Of a stretch of 64,000 bases of DNA, positions 35,333 through 38,976 are shown one piece after another. The notes beneath the pieces were generated by a model. That model ran no database searches and was not told the DNA's origin. It saw only the letters and a program-made list of their open reading frames with translations. A program made the position numbers and the translations under genes. Position 1 is the first letter of the stretch. The number at the start of each line of letters is the position of its first letter. This DNA is from Candidatus Zhuqueibacterota bacterium (GTDB lineage Bacteria; Zhuqueibacterota; Zhuqueibacteria; Thermofontimicrobiales; Thiofontviventaceae): positions 35,745 to 99,744 of the forward strand of contig JAFGDW010000237.1 of NCBI GenBank assembly GCA_016931935.1, written 5' to 3'.

Positions 35333-36988
35333 ATGAAAGTTACCAAGTTTCAGCTATCAAATCTATTCCAATTGCACAAAATCCGACGTTTTTCCCAGAT
35401 CGTCTTTTTTTTACTATTTCTTTATCTGATTATTCTTTCAGTAACACCACAGGATGCCATATTACCAATTGATTTTTTCATCCGGATGGATTTTCTTGCG
35501 GCGATATCAACGTCGCTCGCTGCACGTTCATTGGATATGATTTTCACAACCTTTATTCCTGCTTGCATAATTGTTGTAATGACGATTGTCTTAGGACGCG
35601 TCTTTTGTGGCTGGATCTGTCCGATGGGGACAGTGCTCGACTTATGGGATCGTGTAATTCGTGGACGTAAAAAGCATGTACGTAATTCAAGATTGCCGCA
35701 CAGTGTATCGATGAGAAATATCAAATATTATTTGTTGGGATTTTTTCTGGTAGCAGCAATGTTCAGTACTCAGCTTTCCTGGCTTATGGACCCGATCCCA
35801 ATAGTGACACGAAGCGTAGCTCTGCCCATTTATTCCTATTTTACTTACGTAACAACATCGATTCTCGCACCACTCTGGCAAGTACCAATTATTCATCATG
35901 TTTCGGAGCCATTGTACTCATTTTTGAAAGCACACATTTTTTTGAATAATCCGAATATCGGTTACCAGGCGATGTCGATGTACCATTATCTTATATTTTT
36001 AGTGTTCATAGGAATTCTCGCATTGTCTGTATTTCAAGCGCGATTTTGGTGCCGGTATCTGTGTCCCCTCGGCGCGCTCTATGGACTGATTTCCAAATTA
36101 AGCATTTTACGTTGGATCGTCGATCCTGAACTGTGCAACGCATGCAATCGCTGCGTCCGACAATGCAAAACAGCAGCCATTATTGATAAGGGAACTGGTT
36201 ATTATGTACAGGAATGTGTCGATTGTTTTTCATGTCAATATGAATGCCCGCAACAGGCAATTCGTTTCGTTTTTCAATCACCTTTAAAAAGTATTCGCGT
36301 TGAGCAGACCGTGTTACATGAGGGTCTGGCACTGTCGCGACGAACATTTTTAAAATCAGCCATCGCTGCCGGTGTTGTCGTCCCGATGATAAAATTAAAA
36401 ACCAGTGAACGGAATCCCAATCCATGGCTGATTCGACCGCCAGGAGCAGTTGCGGAAGAAGAATTTCTCGATAAATGTATTCGCTGTGGCGAGTGTGTGG
36501 AGGTCTGTCTGACGAATGCCTTGCATCCGGCACTATTTGAAGCCGACATTGAAGGCATCTGGACACCGCGACTTATTCCGATGCTCGGCTATTGTGATTA
36601 TGAATGCAATGCATGCTCCCAGGTATGCTCTACCGGAGCTATCCGAAACATTTCGTTGCCGGATAAAAAACAACTAAAAATCGGCCTTGCCTATTTTAAT
36701 AAAAATAAATGCATTCCGTGGAATGAAAATAAAAATTGTCTGGTATGTGAAGAACATTGTCCGGTACCGGATAAAGCTATAAAATTCGTAGATGAACAAG
36801 TGCCTGAACAACGAACAAATAGATTAGTAACGGTCAAGCGTCCATATGTGGTTACGGAATTATGTATCGGCTGCGGCATCTGTGAATACAAATGTCCATT
36901 AAAGGATGAACCCGGCATTCGCGTAACTGCACGTAACGAAGCGCGCCACCCGCAACGTTATTCAGGTAGCGGAGAAAATACATTATAG
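35333..36988 (+). CDS. Fused NapH/MauN-like membrane ferredoxin + NapG/MauM-like polyferredoxin (internal twin-arginine motif)
   Basis: The N-terminal half has TM helices with two CX3CP motifs ([16 protein letters not shown]) and two 4Fe-4S motifs. The mid-protein [17 protein letters not shown] is followed by [26 protein letters not shown] and three further Cys clusters. Confidence 0.7.
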   Translation: [551 protein letters not shown]

Positions 36989-37007
36989 ATTTAATTCAGG
37001 ATTTTTT

Positions 37008-37967
37008 ATGAAAGAACAGTCTTTATTCCTACGAATGGCCATTATTATAATTATCTGCATTTTAGCAGGATTAAATTGTAATTCAACCGGGCCTGACAAT
37101 TCAGTCAAATTGCTGTTTCCCCAGCCGAAGGAAATTGGCTCCGATTATAAACAGACAAAAATGAAAATTTATCGTGACAAAGGATTATATGAATTTCTGA
37201 ATGGTGGAGCGGAAATTTATTTCGATTATGGTATTGTTCAAGTTGTTTCGACTGAATACCAGGTAAATTCCGATCTTGGCATTGAAGTCAGTGTCTATGA
37301 TATGGGCGATTCATCAGGTGCATTTGGCATATACAGTTCAAAACGCTATCCGGCAGCGGATTTTATCGATATTGGCAATAACGGATTTCGGACTTCAGCT
37401 TCACTTGAGTTCTGGAAAGGGCAATATTATTGCAAATTGATTAATTATGAAACCAGCGCGGAATCGGATAATGCAATGCTAAAAATTGGAAAATTTATTG
37501 CTGAACGAATAAAAGAAACCGGACAGCCCCCGGCAATTGTATCGTTACTTGCCCAAAATGATGGTATTAAAAACACTGAAAAATATTTTCGTACCCAACT
37601 GGGTTTAAATAACATCCACTACATCAGTCATGATAATGTCCTGATGTTATCTGATTCAACACAAGGAGCTGTGGTTGGATATGGCGATACAAATCCTATA
37701 GCTCTGGATTTTGTAATTCAATATTGTGATTCAGTACATTCAAAATCTGCAATTGAATCATACATCCAATTTTTAAAAGAGCAGGGGAGAGTAGACTCCA
37801 GCGGAAATTTCTATAAATCCATTGGGAAAAATCACAAATGGACATGGATTGGTTCGGAGAAGCAATACCTATTTGGTTTGTGGAACGCCGAAGATGAATC
37901 AGAGTCTCTTGAGATAATGACAATGATTTCAAAAAATATCCAAAACAAAATTAAGTGCAAATACTGA
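37008..37967 (+). CDS. Hypothetical exported/lipoprotein
   Basis: It has an N-terminal hydrophobic signal with Cys (…ILAGLNCNS). I saw no motifs. Confidence 0.45.
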   Translation: MKEQSLFLRMAIIIIICILAGLNCNSTGPDNSVKLLFPQPKEIGSDYKQTKMKIYRDKGLYEFLNGGAEIYFDYGIVQVVSTEYQVNSDLGIEVSVYDMGDSSGAFGIYSSKRYPAADFIDIGNNGFRTSASLEFWKGQYYCKLINYETSAESDNAMLKIGKFIAERIKETGQPPAIVSLLAQNDGIKNTEKYFRTQLGLNNIHYISHDNVLMLSDSTQGAVVGYGDTNPIALDFVIQYCDSVHSKSAIESYIQFLKEQGRVDSSGNFYKSIGKNHKWTWIGSEKQYLFGLWNAEDESESLEIMTMISKNIQNKIKCKY

Positions 37968-38010
37968 AAGTTTCTCAACCTTTTCAGAATTATAAATGTG
38001 GAGCAATATC

Positions 38011-38976
38011 ATGAGCTGCCAACACTATAATCGTCGTCAATTTTTAAAGCAGGCAGTAGTAACAGGACTATCTGCGACTGTACTGCCATGGATTGATTGC
38101 ATTAAAACACAAACTAAAGAAATGCAGATGAAAGGAAGTGTTCCAACAATTACAGGGTTAGCAATAGCTCGAGGTGCTGATGATCCCACGTTGCTTGTAC
38201 GCGAAGCAATAAAGGCTGCCGGTGGAATTCAGAAATTCATCAGTAAGGGAGATATTGTCATAATCAAACCCAATATCGGCTGGAGCCGAACTCCGGAACA
38301 GGCCGCGAACACCAACCCGGAAATCGTTGAGACTGTTATTGAGCTGTGTATGGAAGCTGGCGCCAAAAAGGTGAAGGTGTTTGATTTGCCTTGCAATCCT
38401 ACGCCGCGCGCATATCGAATGAGCGGGATTGAAACAACGGCCAAAAAAGCCGGCGCGGATATTTATTTTATGGATGATCGTAAATTTCGTGACATTACTA
38501 TCCCTATGGGTGAAGCCGTAAAAAGCTGGCGTATGTACACAGAAATTTTTGAAGCGGATAAATTGATCAATATTCCAATCTTGAAACATCATAGCATGGC
38601 GCGCCTGACCATGGGGATGAAAAATAACATGGGATTGATTGGTGGCAACCGCGAAAGTATTCACACACAATTCGATCAGAAACTGGTGGATTTATGTACG
38701 GTTATTAAACCACATTTGACAATTATGGATGCCTATCGGGTGTTAACAGCCAATGGCCCGAATTCCGGTACACCGGATGATGTGGTTTTAGCTAAACACG
38801 TTATTGTCGGAACAGATCCAATAGCGGTCGATTCCTATGGTGTGCAATTGTTTGGAACAATAACGAATCAGCCACTCACCGCTCATGATATTGAATATAT
38901 CCGCCTGGGAAATCTGGCAGGTCTTGGAGAAATTGACCTTTCAAAAATTTCAGTAAATGAAATTGATTTATCATAA
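38011..38976 (+). CDS. Tat-exported DUF362-like protein
   Basis: GGAG lies 8 nt upstream of the ATG at 38011. The twin-arginine signal is MSCQHYNRRQFLKQAVVTGLSA. It is about 320 aa. Confidence 0.45.
   Translation: MSCQHYNRRQFLKQAVVTGLSATVLPWIDCIKTQTKEMQMKGSVPTITGLAIARGADDPTLLVREAIKAAGGIQKFISKGDIVIIKPNIGWSRTPEQAANTNPEIVETVIELCMEAGAKKVKVFDLPCNPTPRAYRMSGIETTAKKAGADIYFMDDRKFRDITIPMGEAVKSWRMYTEIFEADKLINIPILKHHSMARLTMGMKNNMGLIGGNRESIHTQFDQKLVDLCTVIKPHLTIMDAYRVLTANGPNSGTPDDVVLAKHVIVGTDPIAVDSYGVQLFGTITNQPLTAHDIEYIRLGNLAGLGEIDLSKISVNEIDLS

Follow-up and report, generated by a model that had tools for sequence, protein, structure and literature searches.

The window analysed here is a stretch of 64,000 nucleotides from contig JAFGDW010000237.1 of Candidatus Zhuqueibacterota bacterium. 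Three consecutive genes on its forward strand encode a 551-residue iron-sulfur membrane protein, a DUF6599 protein and a DUF362 protein (Table 1), with intergenic gaps of 19 and 28 nt in an operon-like arrangement. A first-pass annotation of this DNA had described the membrane protein as a single-gene fusion of NapH-like and NapG-like modules, with a motif for the twin-arginine translocation (Tat) system in mid-protein, and had placed a probable DUF362 protein with its own twin-arginine signal two genes downstream. Here, we find one uninterrupted open reading frame (ORF) for the fusion, whose product belongs, judging from its sequence, to the dual Sec/Tat polytopic polyferredoxin (PFD) family described by Tooke et al. 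2017 (eLife 6:e26577, PMC5449189). What is new is the DUF362 context of that family, a modest addition: adjacency of the two genes, seen from either side, strongly supports DUF362 as the partner of PFD.

Table 1. Features of the window, with positions counted from its first letter (TMD, transmembrane domain; aa, amino acids; K/R, lysine or arginine)
Feature	Position	Strand	Basis or remark
Polytopic polyferredoxin (PFD), NapH-like + NapG-like fusion, 551 aa	35333..36988	+	Intact ORF, domain and family matches, homologues
NapH-like module, aa 1-334	35333..36334	+	Hydropathy, motifs, K/R counts, TIGR02163, Fer4_5 twice
Internal twin-arginine motif SRRTFLK, aa 335-341	36335..36355	+	Motif scan, conservation, alignment with Q1NSB0 and with the NapG profile
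Weak TMD5 (aa 338-353) and positively charged stretch (aa 354-368)	36344..36436	+	Hessa sums, K/R count
NapG-like predicted periplasmic domain, aa 369-551, four 4-Cys motifs	36437..36988	+	NF007012, motif scan
DUF6599 protein, 319 aa, MBN2011319.1; probable periplasmic accessory subunit	37008..37967	+	PF20244
Tat-signal DUF362 protein, 326 aa from first ATG; candidate periplasmic catalytic partner	37996..38976	+	PF04015
Hybrid sensor: three PAS, HisKA, HATPase, receiver	31931-34294	-	Divergent, just upstream of the cluster
215-aa ORF, 80 bp upstream of PFD	34605-35252	+	Signal-peptide-like N-terminus, ends ...GIRYCF
DUF4846 gene, split by frameshift	38996-39855	+	Two ORFs in different frames
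Nramp-like transporter, apparently in three ORFs	39959-40645, 40691-41095, 41059-41367	+	Pfam
Glycyl-radical enzyme, PFL-like	11619-13853	+	Upstream anaerobic-metabolism gene
Radical-SAM activase of the glycyl-radical enzyme	10581-11525	+	Upstream
DeoC-family aldolase fused to 2x[4Fe-4S] domain	17990-19276	+	Upstream
Aldehyde:ferredoxin oxidoreductase	19503-21311	+	Upstream

The fusion protein is 100% identical to MBN2011318.1, a '4Fe-4S binding protein' from a metagenome-assembled genome (MAG) of candidate division KSB1. Its N-terminal half has the NapH-like architecture that had been read from it, namely four strongly hydrophobic segments in a hydropathy scan (aa 20-38, 69-87, 134-152 and 220-238), two CX3CP motifs (C92/C96 and C240/C244) and two CX2CX2CX3C ferredoxin motifs starting at C268 and C295. 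The successive loops carry 5, 2, 10 and 2 K/R, which fits the positive-inside rule for an N-in topology, and this predicted topology puts both CX3CP and both ferredoxin motifs in the cytoplasm. At the junction, the motif SRRTFLK, found in mid-protein as the first pass had stated, leads into a weakly hydrophobic stretch, TMD5, and from there into four K/R within 15 aa (K354, K356, R360 and R368). Summed on the Hessa scale, TMD5 comes to +9.0, as against -1.6 to +1.6 for TM1-TM4; these are crude sums, whereas Tooke et al. 2017 used dGpred. The C-terminal half likewise bears out its NapG-like description, with an RPPG-led 4-Cys motif at C382 and three further 4-Cys motifs at C421, C460 and C511. 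The 28 Cys of the protein divide into 12 on the cytoplasmic side, in the two CX3CP and two ferredoxin motifs, and 16 beyond TMD5. Pfam recognises Fer4_5 twice as well as dicluster domains, detects no FMN-binding domain, and gives only a sub-threshold TAT_signal match at aa 334-349 (18.0 bits, cut-off 22.7).

A frameshift or stop codon between 36300 and 36400, which would have meant two genes and had been raised as a hazard, is absent: the junction reads through in frame, without a break over 36280-36460. A homology search of 5.8 billion proteins with the 551-aa query returned more than 4,700 homologues. Among the 120 matches listed, all but a few are about 510-570 aa long with query coverage of 89-100%; the rest are two fusions of greater length and a small number of truncated entries. 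Because the frame is continuous and full-length homologues are many, the fusion is real and no artefact, with homologues of like length across many phyla. A two-gene artefact, whether through loss of a stop codon or through a frameshift, is ruled out by that continuous frame together with the full-length homologues in independent assemblies. Across 115 aligned full-length homologues, none of the 28 Cys varies and R337 is likewise 100% conserved; R336 is conserved in 81%, a Lys after the fifth helix in 67% and the RPPG motif in about 100%, and the hydrophobic stretch is likewise kept. The phylogenetic distribution of the fusion, which the first pass had suggested tracing, is broad. A scan of one genome per species yielded at least 592 loci that encode a PFD relative, a count that is a lower bound, in phyla that include KSB1, Caldithrix, Desulfobacterota, Nitrospirota, Acidobacteriota and Aminicenantes, and also Spirochaetota, Ignavibacteria, Chloroflexota, Omnitrophota and Zixibacteria.

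Tooke et al. 2017 screened the entire set of prokaryotic proteins for those in which an even number of TMDs precedes a twin-arginine motif and a single further TMD, and chose as exemplar of the PFD family Q1NSB0, from delta proteobacterium MLMS-1. PFD as they describe it has five TMDs and a conserved RR motif directly before TMD5, and is predicted to hold seven [4Fe-4S] clusters, of which three are cytoplasmic and four extracytoplasmic; in their words, it 'is a fusion of NapH ... with NapG' (PMC5449189). When MBP or AmiA was placed after the five TMDs of Q1NSB0, export in E. coli was Tat- and RR-dependent, and Sec insertion was shown to be blocked jointly by the low hydrophobicity of TMD5 and the positive charges that follow it (PMC5449189). 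The window protein has the corresponding sequence features. Four strong TMDs, N-in, are followed by an RR motif directly before a single last TMD; this last TMD is weak and trailed by positive charges, again by crude sums rather than dGpred; and the Cys motifs would suffice for about seven [4Fe-4S] clusters, three of them on the cytoplasmic side and four beyond the membrane. There is also homology across the TMD region. Aligned by BLASTP with residues 1-364 of Q1NSB0, taken from the supplement of PMC5449189, the window protein shows 33% identity (E 9e-39), collinear from aa 45-357 against 42-361, and the alignment spans the RR motif and TMD5 (segment LGRRRLLGAAAAGLVVGPLLRVS). TMD5 of Q1NSB0, too, ranks as the least hydrophobic of its TMDs by crude Hessa sums.

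The two proteins thus share the RR motif before a weak TMD5, the positive charges, the NapH-like half and the four-cluster NapG-like half, and the family taxa listed in PMC5449189, among them Caldithrix, Latescibacteria and Nitrospirae, overlap those found here. They differ in that the window protein comes from KSB1 and has a shorter cytoplasmic linker, and in gene order, which is PFD-DUF6599-DUF362 in the window lineage and usually DUF362-PFD elsewhere. The fusion and its internal Tat motif have therefore been known since 2017, and the locus adds a KSB1 member. The first-pass proposal that the internal RR acts as a topogenic Tat segment matches the published PFD, so that it is probably right and is not new. 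Tat dependence of the TMD5 region was shown by others, for the homologue Q1NSB0, and is predicted for the protein described here. For Tooke et al. 2017, PFD served solely as a model of membrane insertion; their main text contains zero mentions of DUF362, and our literature searches on NapGH-like fusions brought up nothing besides their paper.

Profile searches against NapH and NapG, the check that had been proposed for the two halves, gave a divided answer. The matches are significant, and yet they all stay below the curated cut-offs. TIGR02163 (NapH) matches the N-terminal half with E 4.5e-28 and 98.5 bits (cut-off 213), and NF007013 (NapH) reaches 83.9 bits (cut-off 234). On the other side of the junction, NF007012 (NapG) matches aa 335-537 with E 1.8e-29 and 102.6 bits (cut-off 269), its alignment beginning at profile position 10, opposite SRRTFLK, while TIGR00397 (NapG/MauM) gives 78.6 bits (cut-off 178.85). 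Unlike NapG/MauM, moreover, the C-terminal half is not a free-standing protein, and its Tat motif is internal, at aa 335. Because the scores lie under the curated cut-offs, we describe both halves, on sequence grounds, as NapH-like and NapG-like and not as orthologues, and NapGH-like quinol dehydrogenase activity is therefore not to be assumed. The label 'quinol dehydrogenase' would be one inherited from NapGH by analogy.

The NapGH pair of E. coli and Wolinella succinogenes nonetheless comprises the same two modules as PFD. NapH contributes four TMDs and, besides its two CX3CP motifs, two cytoplasmic clusters, and NapG is a Tat-exported protein with four clusters. There, NapG and NapH are separate polypeptides, whereas PFD is a single one whose Tat signal is internal and uncleaved and whose scores fall below the equivalog cut-offs. 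The setting differs as well: no napA, napB or napC lies near the window PFD, and the periplasmic protein associated with PFD is DUF362, not a molybdoenzyme or cytochrome. A Pfam scan of 38 larger ORFs of the window (positions 930 to 50166) found no nap genes and no catalytic subunit of Nap, Tor or Nrf type, nor any other of the molybdo- or haem kind, in agreement with the earlier remark that no obvious terminal catalytic subunit is nearby.

Two further groups of proteins resemble PFD in part. The actinobacterial Rieske protein (Sco2149/QcrA) and the haem-molybdenum cofactor (MoCo) protein Sco3746 follow the same dual Sec/Tat logic (PMC5449189), in which Sec takes the early TMDs, and the RR motif with a weak last TMD passes the cofactor domain to Tat; their cofactor domains (Rieske 2Fe-2S or MoCo) are unrelated to that of PFD, and their TMD number is different. 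In NosR, PceC and other systems that combine NapH-like and FMN-binding domains, a NapH-like iron-sulfur protein is linked to an extracytosolic oxidoreductase (Meheust et al. 2021, eLife 10:e66878, PMC8238504). Outside the membrane, these systems have an FMN domain flavinylated by ApbE, where PFD has a NapG-like four-cluster domain.

Turning to the partner, the DUF362 ORF matches PF04015 with 183.7 bits (gathering score 24) over profile positions 1-199 of 200 and carries an N-terminal NRRQFLK, with RRQFLK at aa 13-18, so that the family and the twin-arginine signal assigned to it at first pass both stand. NCBI places the start at 38011, giving a product of 321 aa (MBN2011320.1). To gauge how constant the association with PFD is, we examined two samples: 80 PFD-centred genome loci, in which stop-to-stop ORFs were translated and partners sought with phmmer and iterated hidden Markov models (HMMs) built from the window proteins, and, reciprocally, 80 metagenome loci retrieved through a DUF362 alignment. 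Loci with at least 1.5 kb present on both flanks were taken as informative. A same-strand DUF362 gene adjoins PFD in 71/80 genome loci (52/58 informative), mostly immediately upstream and often overlapping it, and in the reciprocal sample PFD adjoins DUF362 in 62/80 loci (31/34 informative). Overlapping stop and start codons between the two genes are frequent. The pairing spans Desulfobacterota, Nitrospirota, Acidobacteriota, Aminicenantes, Spirochaetota, Ignavibacteria, Chloroflexota, KSB1 and others. An N-terminal motif of the RRxF[LI]K type is present in 66/77 DUF362 ORFs of the genome loci, nearly all of them PFD-adjacent, and the ORFs that lack it are mostly cut by contig ends. DUF362 had been put forward as a candidate redox partner from the window alone; adjacency in both directions and a Tat signal on most copies now strengthen that candidacy. 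Our literature search found no paper linking PFD to DUF362, and the near-constant pairing seems undescribed.

All-against-all clustering of the ORFs of 80 related loci revealed no third broadly conserved gene, and cytochromes, molybdoenzymes and Lar maturation genes were not among the shared families. One apparent shared family proved to consist mostly of antisense ORFs and was rejected; other shared genes reflect lineage-specific synteny. The next commonest neighbours of PFD-DUF362 are histidine kinases (11/80 loci) and response regulators (10/80), a hint of regulated expression. Several loci have tandem DUF362 paralogues beside PFD (L081:10586-12541 and L082:10631-12571, and also L041, L059, L061, L067, L118, L133 and L134), which suggests heteromeric or alternative periplasmic partners. 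In the closest species-representative relative of the window PFD, with 58% identity, the PFD gene stands alone (L001:9052-11638); neither DUF362 nor DUF6599 is found near it, and it directly follows two small ORFs that, judged by eye, resemble a nucleotidyltransferase/HEPN toxin-antitoxin pair.

The DUF362 subfamily that accompanies PFD has a set of invariant residues, which in window numbering are K91, N93, D130, N192, K197, H199, K209, N210, H223, D245, R248, D262 and D279. We modelled DUF362 and DUF6599 with AlphaFold2, each as a monomer. In a Foldseek search of the PDB with the DUF362 model (pLDDT 87), the top 19 hits were all LarA-family proteins (E 2e-6 to 4e-4, TM about 0.4-0.5). DUF362 belongs to Pfam clan CL0471, the same as the LarA superfamily (PMC11770544). 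Single-sequence and profile comparisons with solved structures, LarA included, gave no match, and Pfam found no DUF2088 in the window DUF362 protein; on the model, the likeness to the LarA superfamily appears limited to the fold. The nickel-pincer nucleotide racemases and epimerases of that superfamily (DUF2088) offer the closest solved fold in the same clan, and they differ from DUF362 in that the latter is about 100 aa shorter, Tat-exported and partnered with an iron-sulfur wire. The papers found on DUF362 otherwise give the clan it belongs to and its occurrence in proteins fused with CBM9 or dockerin domains, apart from the report that it is often joined to iron-sulfur domains (PMC5742341). 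One locus holds a DUF362 paralogue without a Tat signal (L134:10914-12137, forward strand) that has a 2x[4Fe-4S] ferredoxin insert at aa 232-281, just after the His aligned with H223. This insert and the reported association with iron-sulfur domains suggest to us a catalytic role for DUF362, with [4Fe-4S] clusters as its supply of electrons.

The gene between PFD and DUF362 had been passed over in the first reading of the downstream genes, which identified DUF362. It encodes a protein that matches PF20244 (DUF6599) with 114.9 bits (gathering score 27) and whose N-terminus looks like a hydrophobic anchor or a lipoprotein-like signal. DUF6599 occurs in 11/80 genome loci, and the order PFD-DUF6599-DUF362(-DUF362) is kept in the closer relatives of the window, L081 and L082. 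It is tied to PFD by gene fusions elsewhere, since in P0016, P0114, L031, L043 and L153 it forms the C-terminus of the PFD polypeptide, giving proteins of about 655-840 aa (L031:1898-4411, L043:9944-12424 and L153:6955-8919). This fusion to the C-terminus of PFD puts DUF6599, like the NapG-like domain, on the predicted periplasmic side, and it is probably a periplasmic accessory subunit. Its AlphaFold2 model (pLDDT 94) has no confident PDB match by Foldseek, the best being a PknH sensor domain (E 1.6e-3, TM 0.2), and a literature search found no paper mentioning DUF6599.

Taken together, these observations make it likely, in our judgement, that the locus encodes a PFD assembled by Sec and Tat that forms an iron-sulfur wire across the membrane, with the Tat-exported DUF362 protein as its probable partner. 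In such a scheme, Sec would insert TM1-TM4 in the N-in orientation, so that the two CX3CP and two [4Fe-4S] ferredoxin motifs face the cytoplasm. The weak hydrophobicity of TMD5 and the many positive charges behind it would keep Sec from inserting this helix; the SRRTFLK motif would instead pass it to the Tat system, which would carry the NapG-like domain, folded beforehand and holding four clusters, across to the periplasmic side, TMD5 staying behind as an anchor. Up to seven iron-sulfur clusters would then form a chain across the membrane. By analogy with NapGH, this chain may join the quinone pool to a periplasmic partner, with quinol as the electron donor, although the donor could be cytoplasmic instead. 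The partner would most likely be the co-encoded, Tat-exported DUF362, which has a LarA-like fold and itself lacks a conserved Cys motif, and we infer direct electron transfer between the two proteins. The NapG-like domain would replace, in trans, the ferredoxin insert that cytoplasmic DUF362 paralogues have and the exported form lacks, and in the window lineage DUF6599 would be a third, membrane-tethered periplasmic subunit.

Beyond this, we see about an even chance that PFD and Tat-exported DUF362, with DUF6599 in some lineages, make up a widespread and undescribed periplasmic oxidoreductase system. Its catalytic subunit would have a LarA fold and no iron-sulfur clusters of its own, might bind a metal or organic cofactor at K91/D130/K197/H199/K209/H223/D245, and would be wired by the seven-cluster PFD to a membrane or cytoplasmic electron pool. 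If true, this would give DUF362 its first functional context and PFD a physiological role. In any case, PFD-DUF362(-DUF6599) is a small two- or three-gene module that could lend itself to expression and testing, and it offers a starting point for the function of PFD and of DUF362, a large family of the LarA clan without known activity.

Some of the evidence weighs against this interpretation. The NapH and NapG scores are far under the curated cut-offs, the DUF362 subfamily lacks a conserved Cys motif and any other motif that could be recognised as binding a redox cofactor, a minority of loci (including L001) have PFD without DUF362, and a few (L083, L100 and L157) have DUF362 without PFD. The low scores are in keeping with a less probable but still credible alternative, in which the architecture is the same and PFD is no quinol dehydrogenase: it would link a ferredoxin- or NAD(P)H-linked donor or acceptor in the cytoplasm to the periplasm, or DUF362 would be an oxidase that feeds the membrane pool. 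The NapH-like half does keep three cytoplasmic cluster sites, and NapH-like proteins serve modularly with both reductases and oxidases (PMC8238504). Yet NapGH, the sole biochemical precedent for this pair of modules, carries out quinol oxidation (cited in PMC5449189), and ORF clustering of the loci showed no cytoplasmic partner gene conserved beside PFD. The missing cofactor motif and the solitary PFD genes favour another possibility, which we regard as improbable, that DUF362 is not the redox client of PFD at all. DUF362 would then be an exported protein of separate function under shared regulation, or a factor for assembly or maturation, and the true electron acceptor or donor would be a small molecule or the product of a gene elsewhere. 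Such a role sits poorly with adjacency in both directions across many phyla, with the frequent stop/start overlaps, with near-universal Tat signals on the partners, and with the ferredoxin insert that cytoplasmic DUF362 paralogues carry for themselves.

The remaining two alternatives concern the membrane protein itself. Were the internal RR a relic, TMD5 would not be inserted and the NapG-like domain would stay in the cytoplasm. The sub-threshold TAT_signal score and the very weak hydrophobicity of TMD5 point that way; against them stand the invariance of R337, the conservation of R336, of the hydrophobic stretch and of the downstream Lys, and the Tat- and RR-dependent export of reporters by the homologous segment of Q1NSB0 (PMC5449189). 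The partner DUF362 is itself a Tat-type protein in most loci, and DUF6599, equipped with an export signal where it is a separate protein, is joined in other genomes to the C-terminus of the NapG-like domain. We therefore consider a relic very improbable. An assembly or sequencing artefact that joined napH-like and napG-like genes is less probable still, to the point of being negligible. Two broken genes nearby in the same MAG (DUF4846 and the Nramp-like gene) show why it might be suspected, but the frame is continuous, independent assemblies from many phyla encode the protein at similar length, and the fusion has been published (PMC5449189).

The other genes of the window that we scanned belong mostly to anaerobic sugar metabolism and transport (Table 1). 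A scan for promoters and terminators over 34200-40100 returned counts at chance level. The 215-aa ORF upstream of PFD matches nothing in Pfam or NCBIfam; its terminal sequence is typical of outer-membrane beta-barrel proteins. This ORF and DUF4846 were considered as members of the module and rejected, neither having a homologue in the 80 related loci. In the DUF4846 gene, the ORF at 38996-39601 covers profile positions 5-150 and the ORF at 39607-39855 covers positions 164-239, with the true frame running on through 39540-39606, so that the gene is either a pseudogene or the product of an assembly indel. The Nramp-like gene matches Pfam in its first ORF alone, with 29.0 bits (cut-off 29.8). Together, the broken Nramp-like gene and DUF4846 suggest that indel errors occur locally in this MAG or that its genes are decaying here. 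Finally, positions 52641-62003 of the forward strand hold a very large ORF that starts with TTG and encodes 3,120 aa.

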